From positions 114,260 to 178,259 of the IMG/VR virus record IMGVR_UViG_3300017987_000006: a stretch of 64,000 nt of DNA; one strand, written 5' to 3'. Below are positions 7,553 through 58,914 of the stretch, piece by piece. Each line of letters begins with the position of its first letter. Positions within the stretch are counted from its first letter, which is position 1. Below the pieces are notes generated by a model. The model saw only the letters and a program-made list of their open reading frames with translations, was not told where the DNA came from and made no database searches. The position numbers were made by a program, and so were the translations under genes. The DNA is from a virus.

Positions 7553-7561
7553 CTTATACCG
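7553..7561 (-). promoter_or_regulatory. GGTATAAG-class promoter motif
   Basis: CGGTATAAG on minus strand; one of about 12 copies, nearly all just upstream of non-structural genes or ncRNA candidates. Confidence 0.7.
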
Positions 7562-7648: not shown

Positions 7649-8881
7649 ATGATCAACGCCCTGCTGGATATGTACGACGACCCCTCCGGCATCGTTCTCA
7701 AAGAGAAGGTCGCTTCGCTGGAGGATGTACCGGAGTTTATCAAGCAGGCTGAGCGCCTGGACCGAGAGACGCTGGACAAGCTACCTGATGACGTCTTCGC
7801 CCTGGTCATGCTGGACAGCGGAGACAAGATGCGTAAGTACGCCTGCACCGACAAGGGAAACACCGCCCTCTCAGTGCTCTACTTCATGGAGACCAAGAAC
7901 AACCTTCCGGCGGAGGCTCAGAAGACAGCGGCGAAGAATCTGATGGAGGCCTGTCGATGGTACAGCATGGAGCCCCCCGCCGAACTTGAGAAGACCGCCC
8001 TTCTCGGCCCGGCGATGGGAGCAGTAACCCTTGGCATGGGGGCAATGGAAGGCAACCGCCGATACAAGCAGCGCAAGGCGGCGCTTCAGCAGGGTGCAAC
8101 GGGGTCGCAGATCATGAAGATGAGCGAGATGGGAGCCAACATCATGCCCAAGACCAAGGTACCTGAGAAGACGGCCTCCCTGAAGCCCCACGTCGACATC
8201 ACGGGCAAGCACCCACCGCAGCAAGTAACCCAGGAGACCGGAAGGTTCTACGCGCTCACCAAGGAGGGTGGGGCCCGATACCCAATCGACACCATGGGTC
8301 AAGTCCAGAAGGCGATCACGTATTTCGAGAAGTACGCCGAGCGCTTCACACCTCCTGATCGCCACCTCTTCTGTGCGAACGTGTCTCGGAGGGCGGACGA
8401 GCTCGGCGTACCCGTGACTGAGAAGATCGCCAAGTACGGAGCGTCCACCATGGCCCAGGATGCCCCCGTAGCGATTTATCAGCGCCAGAGGATGTTCCGT
8501 GAGGGGACCAGCGAGCACGGCCTACTGCAAGAGATGCGCGAGAAGTGTGCCTCGATCAAGCCCGAGTTCCTGGCGGTCACGCTGGAGAACTTTGATAAGC
8601 AGGCGGGGCTGGACAGGCTGTGGGACAACGGTCTGCCAGATCCGTACTACTCGATCTTCGGTGTGGAGAAGCGAGCTGAGTACAGCTTCACCACCGCGAA
8701 CGACACGATCAACGAAACACGCTTGAAACGCTGCGCCAAGGAGTGTAAGAAGCAGGTCCAAGATCTGTTCAACGAGGATGTGGCGGAGGAATTTTCCAAG
8801 GACCCGGTGCAGATTTTCGATTCCCTTCCCCTGGACCAAAAGCGTATTATCATGCGACTGGCATCCCAGGTCGAAGAATAA
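7649..8881 (+). CDS. Putative virion (head) protein with two F-A-L...K/R-Y-x modules and K-x-A sites
   Basis: LPDDVFAL...RKYAC and FYAL...RYPIDT...AITYF modules; ELEKTA, EKTAS, EKRA; first gene of the structural cluster. Confidence 0.5.
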   Translation: MINALLDMYDDPSGIVLKEKVASLEDVPEFIKQAERLDRETLDKLPDDVFALVMLDSGDKMRKYACTDKGNTALSVLYFMETKNNLPAEAQKTAAKNLMEACRWYSMEPPAELEKTALLGPAMGAVTLGMGAMEGNRRYKQRKAALQQGATGSQIMKMSEMGANIMPKTKVPEKTASLKPHVDITGKHPPQQVTQETGRFYALTKEGGARYPIDTMGQVQKAITYFEKYAERFTPPDRHLFCANVSRRADELGVPVTEKIAKYGASTMAQDAPVAIYQRQRMFREGTSEHGLLQEMREKCASIKPEFLAVTLENFDKQAGLDRLWDNGLPDPYYSIFGVEKRAEYSFTTANDTINETRLKRCAKECKKQVQDLFNEDVAEEFSKDPVQIFDSLPLDQKRIIMRLASQVEE

Positions 8882-10460: not shown

Positions 10461-11338
10461 ATGCATACAAGACCCTGGCCTTTGTAGACGAGCTGGAGAA
10501 GCTGGCCCTCGCACCTTCGTTGGTCCAGCGGGCCCTACGGTCTGGTGTCGGCCGTGCTGTCGTCAGCAACGTCCCGAAGGTCTGGGGCTCTGGTTTCGGG
10601 CGCGCGGCAGCGGGAGCCCTGCCTGGGGCGGCCATAGGTGCTGTGGCAGACCCGCAGGACAGTGTTCGGGGGGCAGTCCTGGGCGGTCTTGCTGGAGCTG
10701 GAGCTGGCTATGCATCACCCCTGCTCACGGCTGGGGGTCGCGCTCGTGCTAGAGAGGCCCTGAAGCAGTGGGGCAGGGAACAGAAGCACTCCTTCGTTGG
10801 TGGTGAACTCCCCATCAAAAAAAGCATGAAGCCGGAAGAAATCGCGAAACTTCGATCTGCGGAGAAGGCCGGGCTGACTAGTCTGCCGGGCGTAGTCAAG
10901 GGGATGGCAAAGAGGCCGCTACAGACGATGAAGGCTGGTTGGCAACACGCTGGAGGTCTGGGCAAGGCTATGATCGTGGGGGATGTGGCGCTGCAGGCTC
11001 CGGGCCTTGTAGACCCAACCACCCCAGAAGGAACGGGGGAGAAGGCCCTGCGGATGCTCGGAGGGACAGCAGGATTTCTTGCCGGAGGAAAGCTGCCGAT
11101 GTTGGCTAGCCTGGCCCCCATGGCCGGGCTGGCGTACCTCGGCGGGAAGGCTGGTCGCGGGATCGATGTGTTGACAGGCGAGAGAGCAAAGAAAAAGAAG
11201 ATGATGACTGCGGCGCAGCAGGCCGAAGCCGACAAGTTTTTGCGGGTCAGGCCTACTACTGCTCTCGCTCAGCGGGAGGCGCGGAAACTCGTCCCGGCCG
11301 GGTACATCCCGGCTGGGTACGGACCGGGGGTTGTCTGA
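10457..11338 (+). CDS. Putative internal virion protein (AFVDELEKLA motif, glycine zippers)
   Basis: N-terminal LAFVDELEKLA; GAxxGAxxG hydrophobic repeats; basic. Confidence 0.55.
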   Translation: MNAYKTLAFVDELEKLALAPSLVQRALRSGVGRAVVSNVPKVWGSGFGRAAAGALPGAAIGAVADPQDSVRGAVLGGLAGAGAGYASPLLTAGGRARAREALKQWGREQKHSFVGGELPIKKSMKPEEIAKLRSAEKAGLTSLPGVVKGMAKRPLQTMKAGWQHAGGLGKAMIVGDVALQAPGLVDPTTPEGTGEKALRMLGGTAGFLAGGKLPMLASLAPMAGLAYLGGKAGRGIDVLTGERAKKKKMMTAAQQAEADKFLRVRPTTALAQREARKLVPAGYIPAGYGPGVV

Positions 11339-14300
11339 TGGACCTCGGAACAGTTGGCGCTACACGCTTCTCCAGATCTCGCGGCAGGATAACTGGATCT
11401 GGAACCAGCGGCATCAGCTATCCGAGCCCGTTCTTCGATATCGGGCATACGTACCTGCCCACCACCGTCAAGCAGATGTTCAGGTGGTGTCGGTACTACT
11501 TTTTAGTTCACCCGCTGATCAACTCGATCATCTTCAAGATGGCCCAGTATCCGATCACGGACCTGGTCTATCACACCGACGATCCGCACTTGAAGGACCG
11601 GTGGAGGGAGATCTTCGAGGACGTTCTCAAGTACCGCTGCTTCCAGATGGAGATCGGTCTCGACTTCAACACGTACGGCAACGGGTTTGTCTCAATGTTC
11701 TTTCCGTTCCGGAAGATCATTGAGTGCACGAACTGTCATAACAGCGAGGCCGCAAAGGACGCCAGGTACTACTTCCGCAACTTCCAGTTCTATTGGAAGT
11801 GCCCACGCTGTGGGCACCACGGGCCGACCAAGGTCTATGATCGGTACATCAAGTCGACGCGGGGAATCCGCCTCTTGAGGTGGAACCCGGAGGACATCGA
11901 CGTTCGATACAACGATCTGAACGGCCAGTACACCTACTTCTACGACATTCCCGTGAAGTTGAAGAACGACATCATCATGGGGCGGAGACATATCGTGGAG
12001 GAGGTGCCGCAGGTCTTCATCGAAGCGCTTCGACGGAAGAAGGCTATCGTCTTCAACAACGACAACATCTACCACTTCCGACGCCCGACACTGGCTGGCA
12101 AAGATCGAGGGTGGGGAATCCCATTGATCTTGCCGGTGCTGAAGGACGCCTTCTACCTGCAAATACTGAAAAAATCTCAAGAATGTGTGTCTTTAACCAG
12201 CGAGCTGGAGACATCGGGCGGGCTGGTGCAGGCGGACGATGTTAGGGTTGGGGACCTCGTGAGAACTCATACGGGCGCGTGGAAATCCGTGGAGAAGAAG
12301 TGGTATCGGGACGCCCGAGAAGAAGAGGTCGGCAGGAAGATCACTCTCACGAGTCTTCGTGGGTATCCGACAACGTATTCTCCACAACATCCAATCTTTA
12401 CGATCCGCAGAAACGGGATTAATAGACGGACGGACACGAGAGAAGCTCCACGCTCCTCAATAATTTTGAGCAGGCCGCATCTTTATGAGGAGGTCCTTTG
12501 TCCGGCAGAGTAGTTGGGTATCGGGGAGTACGTCCTCTATCCGCGGTATCTCCCCGTGCAGGAGACAACCTACGTTGACGTTGCTTTAAGGACCGGGTTG
12601 GTGAGTACTGACGGGTTCGTCTATAGTGGGTGCTGTGAGGACACCGCTGTCGCTTTCGAATCTTTGGAGCGGGGAGAAAGGGTACCACACGACAACCCGG
12701 GGCGAGTAGCGAAGAGGGCGATTCGTGATGGGCGCACTCCGAAGAGAATGCCCAGGATCATTCCCATGACGGACGACCTGGCTTACATCCTCGGTTGGTA
12801 TGCTGGTGATGGGAGCTGCAATGCCAGAAGTGTATTTTTCAGCCTTGGGAAAGGGGATGATTCCCTTTCTCTCATCGGGGCTATTCAGCGAGAGTTCGGG
12901 GTTACACCCACCGTGGAGGAGGGAAAATCTGTGAACACGGTGGTACTGTCCGACGTCATCGTACGTCATTTGATCAAGGGCCTAGTACCCGGGACAGCTC
13001 GACATAAAAAAGCCCCAGAAGAGGTGCTCAACGCCCCAAACAGCATGAAACTTTCATACCTGCGTGGGTTGTGGGAGGCAGACGGGTCAGCAGGCGAAAA
13101 GAGTATATGCATCACCTCCACCAGTCGAAACCAAGCATATGACGTATATAGGATCGCGATCCATGTTGGCTGTATCGCTTCCATCGGAAAATCGAAGCCG
13201 AGCGTTAGCGTAATTGATGGAAGAGAGGTACGAAGCAAAGGATCGTACAATGTGACCGTATGCAATGCGTCGGCCGATCGTCTGCGTTCTTTGTGGGAGT
13301 GCGGGGAGGGCCCTGATATTACATCAGGGAAAAGCGGGTTCTTTTGGGGTGACTACTTTGCCACCAGGATCTGCGCAATTGAAGAGGTTGAGGAGGCACA
13401 GTATATAGACTTCAAGGTAGCCGATGACACCACGTTCTGTGTCCCGGGTACGGCCACAAAGAATAGCATTGCGCTCGATCATATCGTCCCACTTCGCGTG
13501 ATGTTCCCGCAGACCGGCTCGGCAACCGCCGACCCATTCTCGATGGTCAACCTCTCGGAATGGAAAGATCAAATCGCTGAGGAGATTCAGCGTTGGAGGC
13601 TCGATAATAACTACATTCCGATCCTCCCGCTCCCCATCGGTAATCAGACCATCGGAGGCGATGGTCGGGCGTTGTTGCTCGGGCAAGAGATCAGAGTGTG
13701 GTCGGAGCAGATCGTCACCGGGCTGGGGATCCCAATCGAGCTCATCTTCGGCGGCCTGTCCTACAGCGGTAGCAATGTATCGCTGCGTATGCTCGAGAAC
13801 ATGTTCATCAACTATATGCACGATCATATCGACCTGACGAAGTGGGTGGTGCGTAAGATCTCTTCTTACATGGACTGGCCATCGATAACGATCAAGTTCA
13901 AGCCGTTCAAGATGGCGGACGACTTGCAGCGTAAGGCGTTCAACCTGCAGCTCTCCCAGGTCGGAAAAATCTCTGACGATTCCCTGCTGTCTGATGCAGA
14001 TTTCGATCCGGACCACGAGGACAAACAGATCGAGAACGAGACCAACCGGCGAGCGGAGGCACAGAAAAAGGCCAGGCTGGCGCAGGCCGAGATCGAAGGC
14101 GCGAGTCAAATGATCATGATGCGCTATCAGATGAAGGCGCAGCAAGAACAGATGCAGATGCAGATGCAGGGAGCTCCGGCTCCCGGGGAGCCGGGAGCAG
14201 AGGCGCACGGCGTCGCGGAGGAGAGTGGGATGCAGCCGCAGCAGCCCCCGCCAGAGCAAGGTGGACCTGGGACTGCTCCGCTTCCTCAACAGATGATGGC

Positions 14301-14652
14301 TGCGCAGGCGCTGCCACCAATTCCGGCCCAGGCCCGCGCCGAGCTACCGCCAGCAATGTCGGAGATGGAGTCACCGCTGAACATGGCGCAGCAAGTGGGT
14401 CAGGTTAATCAAGACCAGGCTGGCCAGATGAACGTGGATCTCATAGCGCAAGCTCAGATGGTGGCGGGGCAGCTGATGCGGATGGACGAGAACAGCCGGA
14501 CGATGGTGCTGATGAACTTGAGACAGCAGTCGCCTGAGTTCTACCAGGTCGTGTTGGGGCTAATGCAGAGCATGGTGGCCGGCGGCCCCACCGCAGAACC
14601 GCCGCCCGAGCAGCAGGCTCCACAGCGGGGCCGCGAGGCCGCCGCAGTCTAG
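11338..14652 (+). CDS. Portal protein with LAGLIDADG intein; in-frame TAG at 12511-12513 inside the intein
   Basis: ORFs 11338-12513 and 12514-14652 are in one frame; portal-like segments (RLLRWNPEDI, IYHFRRPTLAG..GWGIPLI, IALDHIVPLR, GIPIELIFGG); Q/M/P-rich tail. Confidence 0.75.
12184..13464 (+). mobile_element. Intein with homing endonuclease in portal gene
   Basis: Starts CVSLTSEL, block B YSPQHPIF, LGWYAGDGS and LRGLWEADGS motifs, ends TATKN then Ser+1; codon usage differs from flanks. Confidence 0.85.
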
Positions 14653-15467: not shown

Positions 15468-15476
15468 CTTATATCG
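15468..15476 (-). promoter_or_regulatory. GGTATAAG-class promoter variant (CGATATAAG)
   Basis: Back-to-back with the RNAP sigma70 promoter. Confidence 0.5.
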
Positions 15477-15491
15477 ACGAATTCGATTGTT

Positions 15492-15520
15492 TTGACTCGC
15501 AAAATGTGGGCTGCTATGAT
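15492..15520 (+). promoter_or_regulatory. Sigma70-like promoter of the RNAP gene
   Basis: TTGACT-17 nt-TATGAT with extended -10 TG. Confidence 0.75.
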
Positions 15521-15547
15521 CTTCGTCGTATACACAGGAGTCATCTA

Positions 15548-18500
15548 ATGGCGAGGCTCGCACCTGAAGAGGGGTTCGCCCTCCTCAAAGACCAGGTAGC
15601 GGAGACTGTCAAGGAGATCTTCCCGATCAAGGGAACCAAACACACTCTCCGCCTGGACGACATCGAAGTCAAAGACAACAAGGACATCGAGGACATCCGC
15701 TCCCAAAAGAAGGCGCGGCTAGAAGGCCGCACCTGGTCCGTTCCGGTCAACGGTAAGTTGTCTCTCGTTGATAACAAGACCGGGAAGGTGGTCGATCGGC
15801 GGACTCAGAGGATCATGAGCTTGCCCAAGGTGACCAACAGGCACTCCTACATCGTGGATGGTCAGGAGTACCAGATGGACAACCAGTGGCAGCTCAAGCC
15901 CGGCGTCTATTCCAGGCGTGATGAGAGGGGCGAGCTGGAGTCCATGTTCAACCTGAAGGGTAAGCACGCCTTCAAGGTGAAGTTCGACCCAAAGACAGCC
16001 AAGTTCTCCATGCTCAAGGGGACCACCAACGTTCCGCTCTACCCCATTATGCGCGAGCTCGGGGTGACGGACGAGGACCTCGAAAAGTCGTGGGGCAAGC
16101 AGATCTTGCAGTCCAACAAGGTCAAGTCTTCAGACGCTGCGCTCGAGCGGTTCTACAAAGCCGTAAACAGAGAAAAGCCCTCGGACCCGCGCCAGGCCAG
16201 GGAGTTTTTGCAGGAGTTCATGGACGGGGCGAAGATGGACCCCGACGTCGCCCGCATCACGTTGGGCGATAAGCATGACACTGTCGGCGGAAAGACGATC
16301 CAGCTCGCCTCGCAGAAGCTGTTGGGCATCAGCCGCGGTGACGTGAAACCAGATGCACGCGACAGCCTGATGTTCAAGAACTTCCGCTCGACAGAGGACT
16401 TCGCACGCGAAGCGCTTCAGACCAGGAGTGGAGAGATCTTACGGCGCGTCGGAAATAACCTGGACCGGAAAGGAAAGATCCAGGAGATCGTCGGGCCGGA
16501 CATTTTCAACCGTCCCATCAATGCGCTGTTCAAGAAGGCCAACCTGTCCAACCGACCAGACCAGACCAACCCGCTAGAAATGATCTCCGGAGCGATGAAG
16601 ACGACGATCATGGGTGAGGGTGGTATCACGAGCGAGCATAAGATCACTGAGGATGCAAAGCTCATCGATCCTTCCCACCTCGGTTTTCTCGATCCGATCC
16701 ATACTCCTGAATCGGCGCGAACAGGCGTGTCGTTGCATCTTCCTCTTGGGGCGCGAAAGAAGGGGAACAAGCTCGTCACCAAGATGTACAACATCAAGAC
16801 GGGTAAGATGGAGGATGTCGATCCCGAGACGGCGTACAACGCCAATATCGTCTTGCCAGATCAGGTGAAGTGGAGGGATGGAAAGCCCGTCCCAATCGGC
16901 AAGACCGTCAAGTTCAGCGGCCAGGAAAACGAAATCACAACGGGCAGTATGAAGGGGGCGGACTACGTAATGCCGGCCCCGGCACAGCTCTTCTCTGTCG
17001 CCTCCAATATGATCCCCTTCCTTCAGAACGACTCCGGGAACAGGGCAACGTACGCCAGCAAGCAGATGGAGCAGGCCATCCCACTGAAGCATCGAGAGTC
17101 TCCGTTGGTGCAGACCGTCATCGCCGCAGGGAAGAAAGAGACCAGCCTCAACAAGTTCATGGGGAAGATCAATTCCCATACGACTCCAATTGATGGAGAG
17201 GTTGTGCAGGTCAAAAGCGATAGCGTGGTGATCAAGGGAGCGGACGGGAAGCGCAAGGAGGTTCAGACTTACGACCACTTCCCGTTGAATGACGACAAGA
17301 GCTTCTTGCACTCGACGCCGCTGGTGAAGGTTGGCGATAAGGTCAAGAAGGGGCAGACCGTAGCCGACACGAATTTTACCAAAAAGGGAGATCTGGCACT
17401 CGGATCGAACTTGACGACGGCGTATGTCCCGTTCCACGGGTACAACTACGAAGATGGTGTGGTGATCTCCGAGTCCGGGGCGAAGCAGCTCACGAGCGAG
17501 CACATGCACCGTAAGGGCCTGGACGTCGGCAAGGAGCACACGCTCAGCAAGGACGCGTTCCTCAAGCACTACGGGATGACGCTCAAAAAAGACCAAGCTG
17601 ACAAGCTGGACGACGCGGGCGTGATCAAAAAGGGACAGAGGGTTGGTCCGGGAGACACCCTGGTAGCGGCCTTGCGGCATCGGGAAGAGACGGACGAGGA
17701 CAAGATCCGTAGGCGGATGCACAAGTCGTTGGTCAAACCATACGACAACGTCTCCGTCACCTGGGACAACGATCATCCAGGCGTCGTGACGAACGTGGTG
17801 AAGCGAGGCAAACGCGCAGAGGTTCATGTCAGGACTGAGGAGCCGGCGGAAATCGGCGATAAGATCAGCGGCAGGCATGGGGACAAGGGCATTATCACCC
17901 GCATCGTCCCAGATCACGAGATGCCCACAACCAAGGACGGGAAGCGTGTTCATCTGGCGCTGAACCCGGCGGGGGTTGCTGGACGTATCAATTTGGGACA
18001 GGTCCTTGAGGCAGCGGCCGGGAAGATCGCCGAGAAGACTGGAAAGCCATACCGCGTGCAGAATTTTGACGGCACTGAGGATATGACCGAGCGTGTCCAG
18101 AAAGAGCTCAAAGAGCACGGTCTGTCCGACAAGGAAGAGCTCATCGACCCCAAGACCGGCAAGACGATGGGGAGGGCTTTGGTGGGGCCGCGGTACATGC
18201 ACAAGCTTAGACACCAGGTCGGAAAGAAGCTCGTAGCCCGTGCTGGAGGACCGGACTACGCCTACGATATGAATCGCATTCCGAAGCGTGGCGGTCCGCA
18301 CGGGGCGCAGGCGTTGGACTCTTTGGGGGTCTACGCGATGTTGGCTTCCGGAGCCAAGGCGAATCTTCGTGAGATGCAGACTTACAAGAGCAACGCGGAG
18401 AACAACGATGAGCTGTGGTCTGCGGTTCAGACTGGAGATCCACTCCCAGCTCCCAGGCCCTCATTCGCCTACAACAAGTTCGTCGGCATGCTCAAGACTA

Positions 18501-21500
18501 TCGGCGTCAACACGGTCAAGCAAGGCAACACACTGAACCTGATGCCGCTGACGGACAAGCAAGTCAGGGAGATGAGTGAGGGTAGGACGATCAAGGACGC
18601 CGGGAAGATGGTCCTCGGGAAGAACCTCAAAGAGGAGAAGGGAGGCATCTTCGATAAGGACGCGACGGGCGGGCTGAACGGGACCAAGTGGTCCCATATC
18701 GAGCTGCCCGAGCGGATGCCGAATCCGATCTTCGAGAAGGCCATTGTCAGCCTCACCGGCATCAAGAAAAAAGATCTCGGCGCGCTGATGGACGGCAGCA
18801 AGGCCCTCAACACCAAGACGGGTCAGTTCACGTCGCCGGAGGAAGGGGTCTCGGCGGGAAAGGCTGTCGAGCACCTGCTGAAAAAGATCGATGTGGACGC
18901 GGAGCTCGCCTCCGCACAAAAGCAGATCCAAAACCCAAGCCTGAAAGGAGACAGGCTGGACAAGGTTAACAAGAAGATCAAATATCTGCGCTCGTTGAAG
19001 AAGCTGGGAATGACGCCGACGGAGGCGTACATGACCAAGACCGTGCCTGTCCTCCCGCCATCCATGCGTCCTCTGGCCGTGCGCCCCAACGGAGAGCTCG
19101 GTGTCGAAGATCTGAATGGGATGTACAAAGGTCTTGGCATCGCCATCAACAAGATGAAGGATGCCAGCCCGCTGCAGCTACCGGAAAAGATCAACAAGAG
19201 ACGAGCGGCGATCTATGATGCGATGAAGGGTCTGGCCGGGACTGGGGGGTACCTCAACCGAGACTACCGCGGGGTACTCGACATCATCGCCGGGAAGAAA
19301 GCGCAGGGTCCGGAGGGAAAGCCTGGGAGTCCGCGGGAGAGTTACTTCCAGTCCAAGTTGATCAAACGGAAGCAAGATCTGTCGATGCGGTCCACCATCA
19401 TCCCCGAGCCTGAGCTCGGCCTGGATGAGGTTGGGATCCCTCGCAAGGCTGCGATGGAAATGTACAAGCCGTTCATCGTCAGGGAGTTGGGGAACTTTGC
19501 TGGGCTGAGCCCACTGGCGGCGCAGCAAGCCATCAAGGACAGGGACCCGCTGGCCGCGCGTGCGCTGGAACGTGTGGTCAAAGAACGTCCGGTGATGTTG
19601 AAGCGCGATCCGGTCCTCCATAAGTACGGAGTACAAGCATTCAAGCCGGTGCTCACTAGCGGCAAGGCGATCAAGATCCATCCCCTGGTGACTGGCGGAT
19701 TCAACGCCGACTTTGACGGCAATTGTGTTGACGGCTGCTCCGAATTGGTGATAAGGTGTTCTGGTCTTGCGAGGGAGCACTTTATGAAATTCGGAGCAGA
19801 GTCTTTGACAGTGGCGAGAGATCCTGCGCTTGGGATCAATGCCGACCGTATTATGATCAAGAACTTTCCACGGGAGGAAGAACCACACAGGTACGATCGA
19901 AATGGCGCTGCCGTCTACCGTGTCCCGGACGGATTGCAGGTCCTTTCGTACGATCACTTCTTGGGTGAGTCGACGTTCGAGGACGTCACTGAGCTAACCA
20001 TCGAGGAGGACTGTCCTGTAGTCGAAGTGCGTTATGCGTCTGGACACAAGGTTACTGCTTCTACTAATGAGTCTTTGTGTGTCTATGACCACGAGACGGG
20101 AATGCTGCGCAAGGCACGGCCGGAGGAATCTGTAGGGGCACTAAGCCCTGTCATCTCGTCTCCTCCCGGTGATAAGCACGACAAGTTTTTCGGGTGGATG
20201 GTAGGCGCTTTTGTGTCTGATGGATTCTTCACCAACGGGCGCATCGGAATCACCAAAGTCGATGACGAGTTCCGCTCAACGTTTGGGGATGCTCTAAGAA
20301 CGTTCGGCGATGTGTACGCAAGCAACACATACCGCAGAGAAAAAAAGGCACCGACCGATTTCTCAGAGCATAGCGTCAAAGATCACTACACCGTGGGGGG
20401 AGAGATCAAAGACCTGTTCATGAGGTGCTACACCGTAGAGTACAGATCTTATCTACGGGATGGAACGCGGAGCGGCGAATTAAAGAATAAGCGGGCAGCA
20501 CTATACAAGCGCCTACCACAGGACATCGGCGACTATTCCAGAGATGCCTTGCTCGGTGTATTGTCCGGCTTGTTGGATGGGGATGGGACACTTTCCTGGA
20601 GCAGGTCTAAAACGAAGGAGCAGTTCCTGGCTTCGTATTCCACCAGCTCCCACCAGCTGATGGAAGACGTCCGATATTTGTGTCACTTGCTAAATGTTCG
20701 CTGCTCTGTGTCACCAGTCTACCCCCGTGCGAATAGGGCGCAGAGGCACATCAACTATGTCATCTCATTCAGCACCGTAGATATTGAGAAGCTGGCTGGG
20801 GAGTTGCGCCTCGCTGCTTACTCGGATACGTTGATCAAACTGGCAGCGAACCCGCTGTCCAAGGATGATCGGGACGTGGTTCCTGTGCCGATATCGATCT
20901 TACGCGGCATGATCAGTAAGAAGAGTGTGGTGTTCAAAAAAGACCCAAAGCTCTGTAGATCGCTGGCTACGTTGGCGTCAAAAAATAAGAGACGTCCGAG
21001 GGTCTCCAGAGACACGGCGCTCAGAATGGTCCCCTATCTGAATTTGGAAAACGCACTGGAAGCATATTGGTCATCCTTAGTGAAATCTGATGTCCGATGG
21101 TCTTACGTGAAAGAAGTCGAAGATAAGGGAAAGACGACCGTATACGATTTGGTCGTGCCTACTACCAAGATCTTCGCGGTCAATGGTGGGCTGGTGGTGT
21201 GGGACACCATGGCGGCATTCGTTCCTCTGACCTCCGAGGCGGTGGACGAGGCGCGGAAGATGTATCCATCCAGGAACCTTTTCAGTCCCGCTACCGGAAG
21301 CTTGATGTACAAGCCGACGAAGGAGAGTCAACTTGGGCTCTACAAGCTGACCCAGCAGGGCAAGCGGACGGACAAGGCGTTCAAGACCGTGGCCGAAGCT
21401 GCGAGGGCTGCCTCAGCAGGATCCGTGGGGATGACTGATGTGGTCAAGATTGGCGGACAGCAGACCACCATTGGGCGCGCTCTGGTAGCCAACGCGCTAC

Positions 21501-23248
21501 CTCAATCCATGCGCGGCGGTGTGATGAGCGGGAAGACCCCACTGGACGGGAAGGGGCAGACGGAGCTGCTGACTCGCTTGGCGAAAGATCACAAGGGGTC
21601 ATTCGGCGAAGTCGTCAACAAGATCAAAGACCTCGGAAACAGCTACGCCACGCAGACCGCTTCTTCGCTTGGCCTCGAAGATCTCCGCGCCGACAAGAAG
21701 CTGCGGGACCGCATCCTAAAGTCCGCGGACGCCAAGGTGAAGGAGATCATGTCGGGGAAGGGGACGAAGGAGCAAAAGCAGAAGAAGGCGATCCAGATCT
21801 ACGACAAAGCATCGGAGGCAATGATCAAGGCTGCCGAAATCGACCACGCCAAAAACCCTACTGAGCTATTTCAAATGTTGAAGGCGGGGATCAAACCGCA
21901 GATGGGCGCGTACCGTCAAATCACCATGGCTCCGATGCTGATGATGAACGCCAAGGGCAAGGTCATTCCAGATCCAATCCGCAAGTCCTACTCTGAGGGC
22001 ATCGATGTGGGCGACTACTGGACGCAGATGTCCGGGGCGCGCAAGGGCGTTGTACAGAAGGTCCAGTCTGTCCAGGAGCCTGGGTACTTTACCAAGCAGG
22101 TAATCAACTCGGTGATGAACAACGCCATCGGGGAGCAGGACTGCGGGACCAAGAAGGGGATCACACTCCCTATAGAAGAGCGCGACGTGCTAGATCGATA
22201 CCTGGCAAAGGACACCAAGTCAGGACGCAAGACCTTCAAGGCAGGGACCTTGATCACTCCCGGTGTTCGCGACAGTCTCAGGAACAACCGCGTCGGCCGT
22301 GTCGTCGTTCGTTCTCCGCTCCGATGTGAGCACAGCGGAACGGGGATTTGTGCTCGGTGTTATGGTAACGATGAGGATGGGGCTCCCCCACCCACCGGCC
22401 GGAACGTCGGCATCATCAGCGCCCAAGCCATCGGCGAGCGGGCAACTCAGCTCGCCATGCGGACCTTCCACGAAGGCGGGGTGGCCCCTGTCGGCGCGGC
22501 GGGGAAGCAGAAGGCCGCACTGACGGACGAGTTCAACCGGGTGCAGCAGCTCGTTCAGATGCACCAGAACATCCCTGGGTCTGCTCCTCTCAGCTCAGTC
22601 AACGGGAGGATAACCAAGATCCAAAAAGATCCTGCTGGCGGGAGCAACGTGTTCATCTCGGCGGGAGATAAAGAAGTACGCCACTATGTCCCACAAAACC
22701 GGGGCGAGCCGCTGACGTTTGTGGGGGACAGGGCCAGAAAGCTGACGCGTGGTATGCAGATCCAAAAGGGTGCTCCCCTCTCGGCCGGTCCGATAAACCC
22801 GAACGAGCTGTTGCCCCTGGCGGGAGTGAACAAGGTGCAGGGATACCTGGCCGGACAGATGTACGATCTGTACAAGCAGCAGGGGATACGTCGGAGGAAC
22901 ATCGAGACCGTCGTCAAGAGTATGACGAACCTGACCAAGGTTTCTGACCCGGGCGGACAGTCGGACTTCATTCGAGGCGACTTCGCCCCTACGTCCAAGC
23001 TCCAAGCGCTCAACAAGAAGCTGGTCGCGCAGGGAAAGAAGCCTATCGCACACAGGCCGGTGTTGAAGGGGGTCAAAACGTTGCCGCTCGACATGCAGAC
23101 AGACTGGATGGCAAGATTGAACCATGAGCAGCTTGCTGGTACAGTCGTCGATGCGGCGAACCAAGGATGGAGCAGCAATATCCACGGAGAGCATCCGATC
23201 CCAGCGCTTGCCTACGCAGCTGAATTCGGAAAGAAGAAACCATACTAG
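15548..23248 (+). CDS. Multisubunit-type RNA polymerase, beta and beta' fused in one chain, with intein
   Basis: Beta motifs GFLDPIHTPE, GYNYEDG, GDKISGRHGDKG, KLRHQV; beta' motifs KRDPVLH, NADFDG, RSPLRC...CARCYG, AQAIGERATQLAMRTFH; ATG 15548 with AGGAG. Confidence 0.95.
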   Translation: MARLAPEEGFALLKDQVAETVKEIFPIKGTKHTLRLDDIEVKDNKDIEDIRSQKKARLEGRTWSVPVNGKLSLVDNKTGKVVDRRTQRIMSLPKVTNRHSYIVDGQEYQMDNQWQLKPGVYSRRDERGELESMFNLKGKHAFKVKFDPKTAKFSMLKGTTNVPLYPIMRELGVTDEDLEKSWGKQILQSNKVKSSDAALERFYKAVNREKPSDPRQAREFLQEFMDGAKMDPDVARITLGDKHDTVGGKTIQLASQKLLGISRGDVKPDARDSLMFKNFRSTEDFAREALQTRSGEILRRVGNNLDRKGKIQEIVGPDIFNRPINALFKKANLSNRPDQTNPLEMISGAMKTTIMGEGGITSEHKITEDAKLIDPSHLGFLDPIHTPESARTGVSLHLPLGARKKGNKLVTKMYNIKTGKMEDVDPETAYNANIVLPDQVKWRDGKPVPIGKTVKFSGQENEITTGSMKGADYVMPAPAQLFSVASNMIPFLQNDSGNRATYASKQMEQAIPLKHRESPLVQTVIAAGKKETSLNKFMGKINSHTTPIDGEVVQVKSDSVVIKGADGKRKEVQTYDHFPLNDDKSFLHSTPLVKVGDKVKKGQTVADTNFTKKGDLALGSNLTTAYVPFHGYNYEDGVVISESGAKQLTSEHMHRKGLDVGKEHTLSKDAFLKHYGMTLKKDQADKLDDAGVIKKGQRVGPGDTLVAALRHREETDEDKIRRRMHKSLVKPYDNVSVTWDNDHPGVVTNVVKRGKRAEVHVRTEEPAEIGDKISGRHGDKGIITRIVPDHEMPTTKDGKRVHLALNPAGVAGRINLGQVLEAAAGKIAEKTGKPYRVQNFDGTEDMTERVQKELKEHGLSDKEELIDPKTGKTMGRALVGPRYMHKLRHQVGKKLVARAGGPDYAYDMNRIPKRGGPHGAQALDSLGVYAMLASGAKANLREMQTYKSNAENNDELWSAVQTGDPLPAPRPSFAYNKFVGMLKTIGVNTVKQGNTLNLMPLTDKQVREMSEGRTIKDAGKMVLGKNLKEEKGGIFDKDATGGLNGTKWSHIELPERMPNPIFEKAIVSLTGIKKKDLGALMDGSKALNTKTGQFTSPEEGVSAGKAVEHLLKKIDVDAELASAQKQIQNPSLKGDRLDKVNKKIKYLRSLKKLGMTPTEAYMTKTVPVLPPSMRPLAVRPNGELGVEDLNGMYKGLGIAINKMKDASPLQLPEKINKRRAAIYDAMKGLAGTGGYLNRDYRGVLDIIAGKKAQGPEGKPGSPRESYFQSKLIKRKQDLSMRSTIIPEPELGLDEVGIPRKAAMEMYKPFIVRELGNFAGLSPLAAQQAIKDRDPLAARALERVVKERPVMLKRDPVLHKYGVQAFKPVLTSGKAIKIHPLVTGGFNADFDGNCVDGCSELVIRCSGLAREHFMKFGAESLTVARDPALGINADRIMIKNFPREEEPHRYDRNGAAVYRVPDGLQVLSYDHFLGESTFEDVTELTIEEDCPVVEVRYASGHKVTASTNESLCVYDHETGMLRKARPEESVGALSPVISSPPGDKHDKFFGWMVGAFVSDGFFTNGRIGITKVDDEFRSTFGDALRTFGDVYASNTYRREKKAPTDFSEHSVKDHYTVGGEIKDLFMRCYTVEYRSYLRDGTRSGELKNKRAALYKRLPQDIGDYSRDALLGVLSGLLDGDGTLSWSRSKTKEQFLASYSTSSHQLMEDVRYLCHLLNVRCSVSPVYPRANRAQRHINYVISFSTVDIEKLAGELRLAAYSDTLIKLAANPLSKDDRDVVPVPISILRGMISKKSVVFKKDPKLCRSLATLASKNKRRPRVSRDTALRMVPYLNLENALEAYWSSLVKSDVRWSYVKEVEDKGKTTVYDLVVPTTKIFAVNGGLVVWDTMAAFVPLTSEAVDEARKMYPSRNLFSPATGSLMYKPTKESQLGLYKLTQQGKRTDKAFKTVAEAARAASAGSVGMTDVVKIGGQQTTIGRALVANALPQSMRGGVMSGKTPLDGKGQTELLTRLAKDHKGSFGEVVNKIKDLGNSYATQTASSLGLEDLRADKKLRDRILKSADAKVKEIMSGKGTKEQKQKKAIQIYDKASEAMIKAAEIDHAKNPTELFQMLKAGIKPQMGAYRQITMAPMLMMNAKGKVIPDPIRKSYSEGIDVGDYWTQMSGARKGVVQKVQSVQEPGYFTKQVINSVMNNAIGEQDCGTKKGITLPIEERDVLDRYLAKDTKSGRKTFKAGTLITPGVRDSLRNNRVGRVVVRSPLRCEHSGTGICARCYGNDEDGAPPPTGRNVGIISAQAIGERATQLAMRTFHEGGVAPVGAAGKQKAALTDEFNRVQQLVQMHQNIPGSAPLSSVNGRITKIQKDPAGGSNVFISAGDKEVRHYVPQNRGEPLTFVGDRARKLTRGMQIQKGAPLSAGPINPNELLPLAGVNKVQGYLAGQMYDLYKQQGIRRRNIETVVKSMTNLTKVSDPGGQSDFIRGDFAPTSKLQALNKKLVAQGKKPIAHRPVLKGVKTLPLDMQTDWMARLNHEQLAGTVVDAANQGWSSNIHGEHPIPALAYAAEFGKKKPY
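19724..21205 (+). mobile_element. Atypical intein with LAGLIDADG endonuclease in the RNAP active-site motif
   Basis: CVDG block A, VGAFVSDG and LSGLLDGDG motifs, VYDLVVP block F, ends VVWD then Thr; preceded by DFDGN; lower GC than flanks. Confidence 0.85.
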
Positions 23249-23257
23249 GAGACCGAG

Positions 23258-23638
23258 ATGAATCAAGAACACATGACCAAGATGGCGACGGCGTTCCTCA
23301 GCGAGCTGTCAGAAATCGAGAAGCAGGGCTTTGCCCCGCTCCGCTTCCTGGCCGGTGGTGTGCGCCGACTTGGGGTCGGCATGGCCAACGTTGGCCGGCA
23401 GGGTGGATTCCTCGGTGCCATTGGAGGAGCAGGGGCTCGCCGCGCTGGGGGGGTAAGCAGACACATCAAGCAGATCTATCGATCTGGCGCAAAGCCCGTC
23501 GCAGTGAAAGGCGTCGAAGGCGGTGGCAATATGTTCGGCGGGCTGAAGGCCCTCGCTCGATCACCATACGGCCAGATGGCAGCAGTCCCGGCGTTGGCCG
23601 CGGGCGGGCTGTACGCCGGCAAGAAGCTGTTGGGGTGA
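23258..23638 (+). CDS. Putative internal virion protein (AFLSELSEIEKQG, Gly-rich)
   Basis: Shared N-terminal motif; GGAG RBS. Confidence 0.55.
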   Translation: MNQEHMTKMATAFLSELSEIEKQGFAPLRFLAGGVRRLGVGMANVGRQGGFLGAIGGAGARRAGGVSRHIKQIYRSGAKPVAVKGVEGGGNMFGGLKALARSPYGQMAAVPALAAGGLYAGKKLLG

Positions 23639-23641
23639 TTT

Positions 23642-24868
23642 GTGGCGGAGGTTCTCGGTCCCCCCCGCATGGTGAGTACTGACAACTCACCGACCACGGC
23701 AGAACACGGACCCGCGTGGATCCATAAAGCCGCCGTCACCAATGTCAACCTACGTAACTGGACTGTCGATGTACTGACCGAGCAGGACAACGAATACCAC
23801 ACCGAACTGCAGGTGGCCTCTCCGTACTTCCACACAGAGAACGGGGAGGGTATCTATGCAATGCCCGAGGTCGGATCGATTTGTCTACTGGCAAAGCTGT
23901 CTGACGAAGCCACCCCATTCATCCTTGCGTTTTTGGGATCGTTTGAACTCGAGGGAGCACAACTCGACAATCTCACAGACCGGGCTGGGGAAGCGGCGAA
24001 CGCTGAGGAGGAGACGGGGACGACGCCGACCACTTCAATGTCGACGGGGGCCGGGCAGACGACGAACTCAGCTTCGGCCAGAGGAGGCAGGCCGTTTCTG
24101 AATCCCGGGGACATCATGCTTCGTACCCGGGACAAAAACTTCATCGTGCTGAAACGCGGTGGAGTAATCCAGATTGGCTCTACCCCGACATGTCAGACGG
24201 TCTACGTCCCCATCCTCAACTGCCTCCGCCAGTTTTGTGAAAACTACGAGATGATAACGCCCGGCGGGCTAACCACCTGGGCCGTTCAACGCCAGCAGAA
24301 TGACCCGGCCGGTCTCGCTCCTATCTTGTATCGAATGACGATCAGAGACAAGGCTCAGAATGATAAGGCTGACGTCCAGATTAAGGTGGGTCACATCTCG
24401 GATACGGTGCGATACGAGATGGAGATCGCTCCGCAGGGAATCCAGGTCAATGATGGTGCTGTTACTGGATCTAAGCTGAAGATGACCATTGATGTGAACG
24501 GGAATCAGACGTTCACGATGGAGGGAAGCCTCAGCTATACCATCCAAGGCGGCAGGAGCTACACAGTCCAAGGTACGGATACACTCAGCGTGACAGGCGC
24601 TAGATCGGTCGAGGCGAACAGCATTCAGGAACGATCAAGGACTACACACACGCTGAATGCGCTATCGAGCTTGGAGGACATAACGGGAACAAAGACGATT
24701 AAGGCGGCCATGGTCATGCTCGGAAAAGCCCCGTCGGAACCAGCTGTGCTGGGCGTCAAACTGTTGACGTGGCTGGCAAGCCATACGCATCCTGCACCAA
24801 GGGCCCCATCTGAGCAGGCACCACAACTGGCCACAATACTCTCTTCTAAGGTAGTGTTGACACCATGA
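23642..24868 (+). CDS. Baseplate hub/central spike (gp5/VgrG-like)
   Basis: OB-fold-like N-terminus (VASPYFH..GEGIYAMPEVGS) and C-terminal beta-repeat (YTIQGGRSYTVQGTDTLSVTG). Confidence 0.65.
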   Translation: MAEVLGPPRMVSTDNSPTTAEHGPAWIHKAAVTNVNLRNWTVDVLTEQDNEYHTELQVASPYFHTENGEGIYAMPEVGSICLLAKLSDEATPFILAFLGSFELEGAQLDNLTDRAGEAANAEEETGTTPTTSMSTGAGQTTNSASARGGRPFLNPGDIMLRTRDKNFIVLKRGGVIQIGSTPTCQTVYVPILNCLRQFCENYEMITPGGLTTWAVQRQQNDPAGLAPILYRMTIRDKAQNDKADVQIKVGHISDTVRYEMEIAPQGIQVNDGAVTGSKLKMTIDVNGNQTFTMEGSLSYTIQGGRSYTVQGTDTLSVTGARSVEANSIQERSRTTHTLNALSSLEDITGTKTIKAAMVMLGKAPSEPAVLGVKLLTWLASHTHPAPRAPSEQAPQLATILSSKVVLTP

Positions 24869-25224
24869 AGGTATCACAGCAGGGCCTGGAGGACGCGCTA
24901 AAGAAGTATCTCCAGGAGCTCGAGCCGGTGGCCAAGAGCGTGGCCACGAAGAACGAGGTGAAGCAAGAGCCTCGGCAGGGAGGTGGGACGGATGTATCTG
25001 TCGTGCAGACCAAGGGTGACGTGTATATGGACAGGCAGAACGCCACGGCACTGGCAAAATCTATTGCCAAATCGGTGCATGAACATGTAGTAGGATACAT
25101 GGACGACCCAATGGTGACGAAGCTCAACGAGCTGATAGCGCAGTACAATCAGCTCAGATCTGACTTCGTCACGGGCGGGGGATCGACGACATCAACAGCC
25201 GTAGACCAGATTCCCACGAGCTGA
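24865..25224 (+). CDS. Hypothetical structural protein
   Basis: ATGA-coupled to spike gene. Confidence 0.55.
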   Translation: MKVSQQGLEDALKKYLQELEPVAKSVATKNEVKQEPRQGGGTDVSVVQTKGDVYMDRQNATALAKSIAKSVHEHVVGYMDDPMVTKLNELIAQYNQLRSDFVTGGGSTTSTAVDQIPTS

Positions 25225-25226
25225 TC

Positions 25227-25255
25227 GTGACAAACCGGCGCGGAAGTTGTAGACT
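25227..25255 (+). promoter_or_regulatory. Sigma70-like promoter
   Basis: GTGACA-17 nt-TAGACT upstream of 25277. Confidence 0.55.
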
Positions 25256-25276
25256 CGCGCCTAGGAGATAGGAACA

Positions 25277-27283
25277 ATGGAACTTTTCCTGGATGATCCA
25301 AATGGCCTACCCAAGTTTGCTGCGGCCTTTACCAGGCTGTCCGAGAACCCGGACGAGTGGCAGGCGGAAATCGTCAACGAGCTGTTTCGTCAGGCCCCGT
25401 ACGCCGGTGAGTTCACGGCCAAGGTCATCATGAACGAACTGGACCCGGAACGTAGGTATGGGATGGGAGCCGTCGAGCTGAAGACCCGCCAGGCCGTGGG
25501 CCCCCAGGACCACTCTGTCCCGGAGTATGTCCAGGGCGTGAACAAGGTGTTGATCCCGGTTGTTATCAAGGAGGGCAAACTTTCCCCTCTGGACGTCTTC
25601 CTGAGCAGCGGCAAAGCTATGCCACTGACCGAGCACCGCCTCCGCAAGGCCATGTTCCGGCCACAGCTGTTCGAGGCCGTGGCCAAACGGCCAGGCGACC
25701 AGGACATGATGAACACGCTGTTCCCACCGTACCGTTCGGGGGGATTCGGCCTGGGCGGGAACAGCCGCGTGGGCACGATGGAGCAGGGCAAGACCGCCTC
25801 GGCAAACATCCCGCTCGTGGACGCAATCCACAACACCATCAAGGAGGCGGACGTAAAGCGTGTGGAAGATCAACTCAACGCTGACCCTACGCTGCAAGCC
25901 GCCATCCTCAGAAACGAGGCGACCGCGGGCTTCATGGCAAAGCTGGCGCGACCACGTAAAGCTCTGTCGGACAGGCAGCTGACCAAGATAGCGATGGGGC
26001 TCGTTCGGCCGAAGGTGATCCAGGTATCCAAGTCGCGCGGCGGGTTCATGATTAAGACCGCCGCGCCAGACACTCTCGCCCCAGAGGAAAACGAGGTCAC
26101 CCGTCCGGATGCGGAGTCCATCGTCGGCAAGGACGTCGTCAAGAACGTTGAGCGGGACGGGACCGTTACTATCTCCACCGACCCGGTCGTCCGCGACTCG
26201 TTGTCCGATGCTAAGATCAAGGTCGTCGATGAGTTCGGCGAGTATAAGGTCAGGACCAAGGACGGCAAGGAGCTCGTGGGGTGGGTCTTTCCACGCTGCG
26301 TCGATCTGGGGGGCGTCAACCTGGCGCTTGCCATCTTCTCCAACGGGTCCCAGTCAGGTGTGCAGGAGAACATCGCCGCCAGCCCGGTAGGCAAGGGCAC
26401 AAATCTGATCGATGGCGAGCCGGAGGGATTCGGTTGTTTCTACCTGGCACGCCAGGGTGGGGCCGTGGCCATCGTCCCGATGGACATCAAGGGGCACGGC
26501 GTTGGGCCGGATGGAACAGACGAGTTTCAGGTTTCCACGATGTTGGGCGACGCTGCTCGCATCCGCAAGGTGGAAGGGCTGAACAAGGTCGCAGAGATCG
26601 GAGACGGGGTCTACGGCATTCCCCAAGACTGCGGGTGGCTGCCACTCAGGAACATGACCAAGCTGGCCGATAGTGCCGACGAGTTCACCAAGACGGCGCA
26701 GGTGCGCGGCTCGCTAGATCGGATCGAGGTGATGTACGATCAGTCTGGCGTTTACAGCATGCGTGGCAAGCCGATGGAGAAGTTGGCCAGCGCTGGGGTC
26801 CGACACCAGTACGTCGACCAAGATCAGACCGTGTTTAACATGGCACTTCTGGGGGTCCATCCATCCACAGCAAAAGAAAAGCTCGCGGAGGCCCGCAAGG
26901 CTTCGCGATGGTGTTCAATCGAAGGAGTGAGGCCGGTCACTCTAGCATCTGAGAAGTACGCTGCGGCGAAGGCGGAGGCCCGCACGTTCATCGAGAACAT
27001 GCCTCGTATCAAGTCCCTGCTACTGAAGGAAGCAGCGGCCTTGGACGATCCCATGTCGGTAGACAAAGTGCTGTCGGTAGGGTTCCTGAACCCAGAGAAC
27101 ATCAGCACCTTCGTATCCTACCTGCCCGAGTTCGAGGACGTACTCAGCAAGCTCAGCGAGCTGTTGATCGCTTCAAGGCTCGGTCTGTCGACAGTGGACA
27201 CTGGGGCTCTCGAGCGCGTCGTGCAGCACTTGGATAAGGTGACTGGCGGGCTCAGAGAGTTAAACCAGCATCCACAGGCATGA
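25277..27283 (+). CDS. Putative virion structural protein (668 aa, several K-x-A sites)
   Basis: AGGAG RBS; GKTAS, TKIAM, TKTAQ, EKLAS, LKEAA. Confidence 0.6.
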   Translation: MELFLDDPNGLPKFAAAFTRLSENPDEWQAEIVNELFRQAPYAGEFTAKVIMNELDPERRYGMGAVELKTRQAVGPQDHSVPEYVQGVNKVLIPVVIKEGKLSPLDVFLSSGKAMPLTEHRLRKAMFRPQLFEAVAKRPGDQDMMNTLFPPYRSGGFGLGGNSRVGTMEQGKTASANIPLVDAIHNTIKEADVKRVEDQLNADPTLQAAILRNEATAGFMAKLARPRKALSDRQLTKIAMGLVRPKVIQVSKSRGGFMIKTAAPDTLAPEENEVTRPDAESIVGKDVVKNVERDGTVTISTDPVVRDSLSDAKIKVVDEFGEYKVRTKDGKELVGWVFPRCVDLGGVNLALAIFSNGSQSGVQENIAASPVGKGTNLIDGEPEGFGCFYLARQGGAVAIVPMDIKGHGVGPDGTDEFQVSTMLGDAARIRKVEGLNKVAEIGDGVYGIPQDCGWLPLRNMTKLADSADEFTKTAQVRGSLDRIEVMYDQSGVYSMRGKPMEKLASAGVRHQYVDQDQTVFNMALLGVHPSTAKEKLAEARKASRWCSIEGVRPVTLASEKYAAAKAEARTFIENMPRIKSLLLKEAAALDDPMSVDKVLSVGFLNPENISTFVSYLPEFEDVLSKLSELLIASRLGLSTVDTGALERVVQHLDKVTGGLRELNQHPQA

Positions 27284-29041: not shown

Positions 29042-29059
29042 AACAATGGACCATTATTG

Positions 29060-54633: not shown

Positions 54634-54789
54634 TTAGATCTCCTCTCTGGTTTGTACAATTCTTATACCCAGAAGAGGGATCAATTTCAGTGAGCTAAGA
54701 AAGGCCCCCGCAACGGTGTGCCTGCTCCGCGGCAGGGGCCTTAGAGAATCAAAGGTACCAACTCTAATCCTCCAAAGCCCTTATACCGC

Positions 54790-55797: not shown

Positions 55798-55919
55798 TTG
55801 ATCTCCTTTTTGGGTTGTACTTTTCTTATACCGATTTATGAGGAAATTCGGATCAGATCGTGGTATAGGATCTCTGCTTTCGTTGGGGAATTACCCCCGA
55901 CACAACATAGGAGGAAGAA

Positions 55920-58799: not shown

Positions 58800-58914
58800 G
58801 TAAACTCCTTTCGTTGAATAGCTTATACCGAATTCTCGACGATTTGTGTTGACAATAACTCTGAGTGTGATCTTCTTCGAAAGATCGCTCAAGCCAAAAA
58901 ACGGAGGTAACAGA

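Follow-up and report, generated by a model that had tools for sequence, protein, structure and literature searches.

Beta and beta' of a bacterial-type RNA polymerase in one intein-interrupted protein of an uncultured phage

Can a phage carry the two large subunits of a bacterial-type RNA polymerase (RNAP) in a single protein, and with which partner, on which promoters and at which stage of infection would such an enzyme act? The question is raised by a gene at 15548-23248 of a 64,000-nucleotide stretch of the IMG/VR record IMGVR_UViG_3300017987_000006, here called the window. The whole record is 178,259 bp long, has direct terminal repeats and is rated complete; the window is its final 64 kb. 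In this complete 178-kb genome of an uncultured phage, one intein-interrupted protein, encoded beside the portal gene, comprises the two large subunits of a bacterial-type RNAP. The gene is the single beta'-like gene of the complete genome and is its sole RNA polymerase gene.

On balance, we favour the reading that the product is the only RNAP of the phage, spliced to a single chain of ~2,072 amino acids, which would work as a holoenzyme with a phage-encoded sigma factor on promoters with a CTTATACC(G/C) core and would be loaded into the virion. In this scheme a mobile intein of 494 amino acids in the Mg-binding loop would have to leave to give the ~2,072-residue enzyme. The resulting core would do without a phage alpha or omega subunit, without the zinc ribbon and without the C-terminal segment of beta', and retains the clamp helices and the flap. 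The holoenzyme with a 263-residue sigma factor would then read the phage promoters with the CTTATACC(G/C) core. The RNAP would probably be made late and loaded into virions and, once delivered, would start phage transcription in the next infection without the host polymerase.

Beta and beta' in a single chain

The gene lies within an open frame that runs uninterrupted from 15506 to 23248 on the + strand. The ATG at 15548 was taken as the real start, because AGGAG, a ribosome-binding site read from the sequence (15536-15540, + strand), lies 7 nt 5' of it and because the RNAP homologues have the N-terminus MARLxPEEGF in common, the same as that obtained from this codon. Between 15548 and 23248 there are 2,566 codons, yielding a product of 2,566 amino acids, and Pfam matches to this product were Rpb2_6 (1.5e-61), Rpb2_3 (3.5e-08), Rpb1_2 and Rpb1_5 (4.1e-21). 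Removal of the insert (see below) leaves 2,072 amino acids. An earlier note on this DNA had estimated about 2070 and had described one chain with bacterial-like beta and beta' motifs; the length is right, and Pfam, matches to the PDB and the alignment agree on the motifs. Judged by these domains, the gene encodes the whole catalytic core of a bacterial-type multisubunit RNAP as one polypeptide.

The spliced protein was aligned with 14 intein-free relatives, with the homologues of Salmonella phage Arash and Vibrio phage D69, and with the rpoB/rpoC pairs of Salmonella, Acinetobacter and Staphylococcus. The beta module (residues 1 to ~994; 15548-18529, + strand) contains Rpb2_3, Rpb2_6 and the flap region, and its top phmmer matches in the PDB were cyanobacterial, Thermus and other bacterial beta subunits (1e-85 to 1e-62). 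The C-terminus of beta joins beta' at about residue 18 of the latter (LNLMPLTDKQV...) with zero linker. When compared with the three bacterial pairs, this junction reads ...GVNTVKQGN / TLNLMPLTD... (18500-18556, + strand), the same place as the earlier note had proposed from KSNAENN...VNTV / NLMPLTD.

The N-terminal part of beta' (residues 995-1392, up to the Mg-binding loop; 18530-19723, + strand) was matched by phmmer to residues 142-464 of beta' in the PDB. An AlphaFold2 model of residues 880-1392 had a mean predicted local distance difference test score (pLDDT) of 76.7 and values of ~90 over residues 970-1380, and Foldseek matched it to the N-terminal halves of bacterial beta' only (E ~1e-24). 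In this part the Cys4 zinc ribbon (beta' 68-99) is deleted, with TGGLNGTKW in its place (residues ~1040-1048), and the clamp helices are found at residues 1191-1225 (19118-19222, + strand; E. coli beta' 267-302). The remainder, residues 1887-2566 and the stop codon (21206-23248, + strand), is the C-terminal part of beta' and comprises the bridge helix, the trigger loop and Rpb1_5, with phmmer matches of 1.9e-65 to Thermus-type beta' in the PDB. The bridge helix, trigger loop and clamp helices could all be aligned with those of Salmonella and Staphylococcus and are conserved. The second zinc site is kept as Cys2199, Cys2260, Cys2268 and Cys2271 (22142-22360, + strand), which correspond to E. 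coli C814, C888, C895 and C898. The alignment thereby confirms both halves of a further claim, that the N-terminal Cys4 zinc finger of beta' is gone and the C-terminal zinc site present. The four cysteines are invariant in 32 family members; the linker-free junction and the zinc-ribbon deletion are common to the window protein and the five family members displayed; and Arash and D69 have all three features as well.

Other blocks are also missing. In E. coli numbering, the alignment lacks residues 4-31, 220-344, 395-419, 938-1049 and 1125-1178 of beta, and residues 10-27, 68-99, 950-1130 (the trigger-loop insert) and ~1348-1382 of beta'; around the last block the conserved C-terminal segment LKENVIxGxLIPAGTG is gone. 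We take beta 220-344, 938-1049 and 1125-1178 and beta' 950-1130 to be the known lineage-specific inserts of E. coli; beta 1125-1178, the one such block checked in Staphylococcus, is missing there too. Set against small bacterial enzymes, the shortfall is ~200-300 residues, not 700. The enzyme had been called streamlined and far shorter than the ~2750 amino acids of E. coli. The loss of the zinc ribbon and of two termini bears this out, but the rest of the difference is mostly the absence of E. coli inserts. Once these are discounted the streamlining is modest, and real for the zinc ribbon and the two termini only.

The single-chain design is widespread and very common in metagenomes. A large protein collection gave 1,127 homologue matches, of which the best 120 share 41-73% identity with the window protein. 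These 120 are mostly single chains of 2,039-2,078 amino acids on contigs of up to ~190 kb, and about a quarter have one or more inteins. Among deposited phages the best matches were Vibrio phages D181, D148 and D69 and Salmonella phage Arash, with ~30-34% identity.

One could suppose that a host rpoBC operon was acquired recently and that its two genes were fused once they had been transferred. The sequence clearly places the enzyme with the bacterial, not the archaeal or eukaryotic, type, and natural rpoB-rpoC fusions are known from Helicobacter and Wolbachia; the latter belong to normal cellular polymerases that have alpha, omega and the zinc ribbon, and in them, as in the window protein, beta and beta' are translated as one chain. 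Nevertheless, we regard such a capture as extremely improbable. Identity to bacterial beta and beta' subunits is only 25-29%. When one genome per prokaryotic species was scanned, the best 80 of the matches listed were all ordinary rpoC, from many phyla with no phylum favoured, and identity in the most conserved 125 residues was 42-47% for these matches versus 72-82% within the family. A maximum-likelihood tree (36 rows, 2,014 columns, LG+G4) was built with 19 bacteria of 6 phyla and without archaeal or eukaryotic sequences, those of the multisubunit-RNAP-encoding Caudovirales (mReC), or those of Helicobacter and Wolbachia; as the archaeal, eukaryotic and mReC sequences were left out, the tree does not place the root. 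In it, the family together with Arash and D69 is split from all 19 bacteria by a branch of ~1.75 changes per site with 100% support in the Shimodaira-Hasegawa-like approximate likelihood ratio test. The family is not nested among the sampled bacteria. In addition, the fusion junction and the zinc-ribbon deletion are common to the distant Arash/D69 clade. The phylogeny, which the earlier note had proposed as a check, places the family outside the 19 sampled bacteria and, as far as sequence comparison reaches, excludes a recent capture.

A sigma factor and a promoter-like motif

Which partners would such a core have? Profiles of alpha (PF01000, PF01193) and omega (PF01192) had no match in the complete genome, and this search was positive in all 14 reference genomes used as control. 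According to the earlier note the window holds no gene for alpha, omega or sigma; indeed none of the three is there, but a sigma-70-family gene is present elsewhere in the genome. It encodes a protein of 263 amino acids (62322-63113 of the genome, outside the window), recognized by profile matches and by homology to Arash. The match to Sigma70_r3 (28.1 bits) is above its cut-off, and those to r2 (13.0 bits) and r4 (13.2 bits) are below theirs. The protein shares 28.6% identity, over 84% of its length, with the annotated sigma factor of Arash at 11916-12554, which we take, from its position, to be the virion-detected gp10. There are 58 homologues of the 263-residue protein, and five of these are on contigs equal in bp to polymerase-bearing contigs.

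Complex prediction was performed for this sigma factor and polymerase residues 1040-1392, yielding a score of 0.69 versus 0.19 for the best of three controls. Of 80 solved complexes, 58 reach that mark, as do 2 of 110 mismatched pairs; as sigma-core complexes have already been solved, passing it indicates likeness and is not proof of binding. At least 47% of the contacts agree between runs, and the pLDDT of the partner is at least 68. The predicted interface places residues 49-97 of sigma on RNAP residues 1191-1225, that is, on the clamp helices, which are the predicted docking site. Most likely, the single-chain RNAP works as a holoenzyme with the 263-residue sigma factor.

A second sigma-related protein, of 449 amino acids, is encoded outside the window (G000:C1:8461-9810, which equals L004:715-2064; G000 is the present genome). 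It has a long coiled coil and, after it, a strong sigma-70 region 4 (63 bits) that is up to 49% identical to the corresponding region of annotated sigma factors from temperate Klebsiella phages; a region 2 is missing. Its role may be that of a decoy or competitor that binds the flap, not that of a sigma factor.

A candidate promoter element, CTTATACC(G/C), emerged once upstream regions had been oriented by gene; an initial k-mer scan of all intergenic DNA on both strands had found nothing. The window contains seven exact copies, all on the + strand and before genes, where 0.26 were expected, and none of 100 shuffles reached seven. One of the copies, CTTATACCG (7553-7561, + strand), is located 88 nt upstream of the gene at 7649, which opens a co-directional block running through the portal towards the RNAP gene. 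A copy with one mismatch, CTTATATCGA (15468-15477, + strand), lies 71 nt upstream of the RNAP start codon; a one-mismatch scan expects 1.47 matches, and this single site could be due to chance. Over whole records, the number of copies versus that in a reversed control was 10 versus 2 in the present genome, 11 versus 0 in a 71%-identical relative, and 10 versus 1 in Arash. Exact copies were not found in most of the short relative loci. In Arash, copies occur directly before the portal and the beta' C-terminal genes, together with an upstream GTTTACAC element, which two of the window sites resemble. Since the motif is conserved with Arash, a Salmonella phage, despite ~30% protein identity, the comparison suggests that it is read by the phage's own holoenzyme.

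Two further observations were made on these sites. An element GTT(T)GTAC / GTTTAC(A/T)C is present upstream of the CTTATACC core at 54662-54670 and 55825-55833 of the window and at all four Arash sites (L001 9421, 9882, 19455 and 21231), with a gap of 4-5 nt to the core, which is far closer than in a -35/-10 pair. A copy of CTTATACCG at 58822-58830 falls in crude-called coding sequence, where open reading frames overlap on both strands and the gene calls may be wrong.

The intein and the catalytic loop

The insert between the beta and beta' domains contains a Pfam LAGLIDADG_3 domain and a sub-threshold match to Intein_splicing. Its boundaries were placed by comparison with intein-free relatives, giving a LAGLIDADG intein of 494 amino acids (residues 1393-1886; 19724-21205, + strand) that starts with Cys1 and ends with Trp-Asp, followed by Thr at +1. 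Cys1393 and Thr1887 (+1) fit a class 1 intein. The +1 residue is Thr or Cys in every intein-bearing allele with a readable C-terminal junction and often Ala or Gln in intein-free alleles, which supports a canonical C-terminal junction. A group I intron in place of an intein, which would restore NADFDGD, was considered and rejected: over its 494 codons the insert keeps the frame of both flanking parts, also in diverged alleles, intein end blocks are present, and the +1 residue is always Thr or Cys.

The catalytic loop as encoded reads NADFDGN, with AAT at the position of the third Asp (19703-19723, + strand). The intein-free relatives have xADFDGD in 93 out of 93 cases. The alleles with the intein type of the window have xADFDGN before the Cys in 13 out of 13 cases, at 41-60% extein identity, and on a tree of the flanking exteins this intein type requires at least seven gains or losses. 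From the 13 Asn-bearing alleles and the repeated gains or losses, it follows that the Asn moves together with the mobile intein and is maintained in genes that are intact.

The loop is, on its sequence, the main reason for caution about the activity of the spliced enzyme. Canonical splicing (Cys1 to Asp1886, Thr+1) would yield NADFDGN-TM, without the third Mg-binding Asp. The end of the intein is itself non-canonical, Trp-Asp instead of the His-Asn of a canonical class 1 intein. Substitutions in the catalytic Asp triad cripple the RNAP of E. coli. It would seem that either a multisubunit-type RNAP works with a DxDxN triad, or the chemistry or register of splicing restores the Asp; the intein-linked Asn-for-Asp allele thus bears on the coexistence of a catalytic triad and protein splicing. 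The same features could mean that the RNAP is dead or unable to mature in this genome, with the third Asp changed to Asn and a degenerate intein, and that the contig is a defective variant. This would account for NADFDGN at the end of the N-extein and for the Trp-Asp end, and the portal intein of the same assembly contains a nonsense codon at a position that is Gln in a relative (see below). The Asn, however, is not private to this genome but found in all alleles with this intein type; the intein spreads and persists in otherwise intact frames of 2,500 amino acids; and the gene is the only polymerase gene of the phage. We therefore consider a dead enzyme distinctly improbable.

Other inserts occur at the same position in relatives. 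P0034 and P0043 have another intein type in the same loop, with NADFNGD, where Asn stands at the second Asp position of the triad and forms an Asn-Gly pair. This makes two instances of Asn in place of Asp beside an intein. A third insert type is found at this site in P0013, P0056, P0090, P0096, P0104, P0118, P0121 and P0005. It starts with Gln, Ala, Met or Asp, not with Cys or Ser (NADFDGD-QQINxV...), and ends with Ser-Asn before Thr. From these ends it looks like an intein without an N-terminal nucleophile.

Probable virion packaging and other phage polymerases

Would the enzyme be delivered with the virion? The portal gene (11338-14652, + strand), a homologue of Arash gp204 identified by tblastn to the Arash and D69 portals and carrying a LAGLIDADG intein of its own (LAGLIDADG_3), lies directly upstream of the RNAP gene, and the large terminase is at 29057. 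The RNAP gene belongs to the head module, with the portal ahead of it and the terminase and capsid genes behind, a position that fits a virion component, as read from gene order. IMG/VR relatives at 38-72% identity keep the order portal, small opposite-strand gene, RNAP and four further genes. In the window these four (23258-27283, + strand) encode proteins of 126, 408, 119 and 668 amino acids, possibly of the baseplate hub or wedge. The earlier note had placed the RNAP gene between portal and baseplate genes; the portal is secured by homology to Arash gp204, but for a baseplate downstream there are weak leads only. The 126-, 408- and 668-residue proteins, the three of these four that were scanned, had no PHROG or Pfam match. 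For 20 neighbouring proteins, PHROG and Pfam returned only the portal (weak), terminase, capsid (weak), helicase and a few weak tail matches. Atlas features of the 408-residue protein (23642-24868) suggest a relative of Phage_base_V (hub or spike), as a lead only. The 668-residue protein (25277-27283) has a lead to a TssE/gp25-like N-terminus, with no usable feature match and with structure matches from a poor model.

Proteomics of Arash particles provides a second line of evidence. Among all proteins the RNAP homologue gp206 yielded the largest number of spectra (3,516), above the major capsid protein, gp216 has 1,210 spectra, and the sigma factor gp10 has 467 spectra with 100% coverage (PMC10585845). 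With the Arash homologues giving the top spectra in particles, the suggestion of a packaged enzyme made in the earlier note is plausible (PMC10585845). By analogy with Arash, and from the conserved synteny with the portal, we infer that the RNAP is probably packaged in the virion.

Several points, next to the chemistry of the catalytic loop, speak against the combined reading of a packaged, sigma-dependent enzyme. In Vibrio phage D69 the motif is not enriched (three copies versus five in the reversed control). Most motif copies are in the late/structural third of the genome, so that early transcription is not explained by them. Host alpha could still be recruited. A capsid-loading leader is absent from the N-terminus of the RNAP. 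The premature TAG in the portal gene may mean that this copy of the genome is defective or mis-called. Finally, the Arash particle proteome comprises 116 proteins, including ribonucleotide reductases, and its authors allow for carry-over of abundant proteins (PMC10585845). The fullest form of the proposal, a self-contained, virion-delivered, sigma-dependent single-chain RNAP that needs no alpha or omega, recognizes a promoter held in common by phages of different hosts and has its Mg-binding loop governed by a non-canonical, Asn-bringing intein, is put forward as a tentative possibility.

Some of the same evidence would suit a functional phage RNAP that is not a virion component. Here the host RNAP would read the early genes, the single chain with its sigma factor would take over for middle and late genes, and the adjacency to the portal would reflect gene-order history. 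Some phages, T7 for example, are well known to make their polymerase only once infection has begun, and most CTTATACC copies are before structural and late genes. The contamination of particle preparations by abundant enzymes, which the Arash authors allow for, also suits it (PMC10585845). So does the lack of a capsid-loading leader on the RNAP. On the other hand, the Arash polymerase exceeds the major capsid protein in spectra, and the coverage of sigma is complete (PMC10585845). The place between the portal and virion-type genes is kept across the relatives, and a sole polymerase that is expressed late suits packaging better than take-over. We judge a non-packaged enzyme unlikely, though a serious alternative, and retain packaging as the preferred reading.

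The nonsense codon in the portal gene is an in-frame TAG in its intein (12511-12513), where relative L013 has CAG (Gln; 1648-1650). Recoding of TAG was considered and rejected: no suppressor tRNA was found, and TAG is a common stop, terminating 60 of the 203 crude gene calls. The codon may reflect a nonsense variant or an error of assembly, or else the gene may have an unusual arrangement in two pieces.

The enzyme was also compared with described phage polymerases. The earlier note was reminded of the mReC lineage. In both cases metagenomic tailed phages have recognizable, bacterial-like beta and beta' homologues that branch apart from the cellular enzymes, and relatives of the window gene occur in the same hypersaline metagenomes as mReC contigs (e.g. 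3300017963 and 3300018080). The mReC contigs were defined by separate matches to beta and beta' models (Weinheimer and Aylward 2020, PMC7481178), and in the rows of Supplementary Data 2 consulted the RNAP consists of two proteins, of ~1000+905 or ~1365+1005 amino acids, often with two sets per contig (PMC7481178). Within these rows no fused entry of ~2,060 amino acids and no contig in common with the family was found. The mReC phages have a gp23-type capsid (PF07068 / VOG11186) and a terminase of PF03237 / VOG01069 (PMC7481178). PF07068 and PF03237 are unmatched in the window phage; its terminase matches PF05876 only, and its capsid candidate has no Pfam match. Because of the one chain, the PF05876 terminase and the capsid without Pfam match, the family is, as far as the rows consulted go, not the described mReC, and membership of the published lineage is improbable.

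The jumbo phages related to phiKZ and to AR9/PBS2 have two-barrel RNAPs without alpha or omega, of which one set travels in the virion and serves early transcription (PMC7824862, PMC13282480). The window enzyme is likewise a phage-encoded two-barrel enzyme without phage alpha or omega. The jumbo-phage enzymes, however, are made of four or five polypeptides, are very divergent, come as two paralogous sets, and have gp68 or gp226 instead of a sigma-70 factor, whereas the window phage has one chain of clearly bacterial-type sequence, one set and a sigma-70-type partner. The crAss-like gp66 and YonO resemble the window protein in having both barrels in one phage polypeptide, but they are too divergent for standard beta/beta' models and lack most accessory domains (PMC7481178). 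The window protein, in contrast, has Pfam beta/beta' matches of up to 1e-61 and keeps the flap, clamp helices, bridge helix and trigger loop. Reviews describe phage multisubunit RNAPs as fragmented, highly divergent and without sigma homologues, and large phages that encode sigma as being without a polymerase (PMC7824862, PMC13282480). In a literature search we found no paper describing the single-chain design.

The present family unites a near-complete bacterial-type core in one chain with its own sigma-70-type factor and without alpha or omega. If the chain were active alone, it would be the simplest sigma-dependent polymerase of the cellular type, useful for studies of assembly and mechanism. 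It would also show how a beta-beta' fusion can replace the alpha platform, and would represent a third route to host-independent phage transcription. The cultured relatives, Arash and the Vibrio phages, are systems in which the idea can be tested.

The closest described relatives of the window enzyme are those of Arash (gp206 + gp216, with sigma gp10; OQ632216, PMC10585845) and of Vibrio phages D69, D148 and D181. On the tree, Arash and D69 form the sister clade of the family, with an identity of only 29-34%. These systems further resemble that of the window phage in having the RNAP gene after the portal, a homologous sigma factor and a similar genome size (180-187 kb), and Arash, not D69, has the CTTATACC motif in common with it. 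The Arash genes were annotated, and the enzyme was not analysed, in the original description (PMC10585845). In contrast to the one-chain core of the window, beta' of Arash and D69 is divided between two genes, the break lying ~85 residues past the catalytic loop (1,525 + 606 amino acids): gp206 of Arash (1,525 amino acids) ends at residue 1969 of the window protein, and gp216 (606 amino acids) begins at 1971. Their catalytic loop is AADYDGD without an intein, versus NADFDGN with an intein in the window protein. A split intein in Arash and D69 was considered and rejected, the extra ~110 residues of gp206 being ordinary beta' after the catalytic loop and not half of an intein. The two Arash genes (L001 11926-16503 and 21274-23094) are 4.8 kb apart with several genes between them, and those of D69 (L002 7962-12545 and 13184-15013) are 0.6 kb apart. 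In D181 and D148 a homing endonuclease is annotated in the region of the beta' split.

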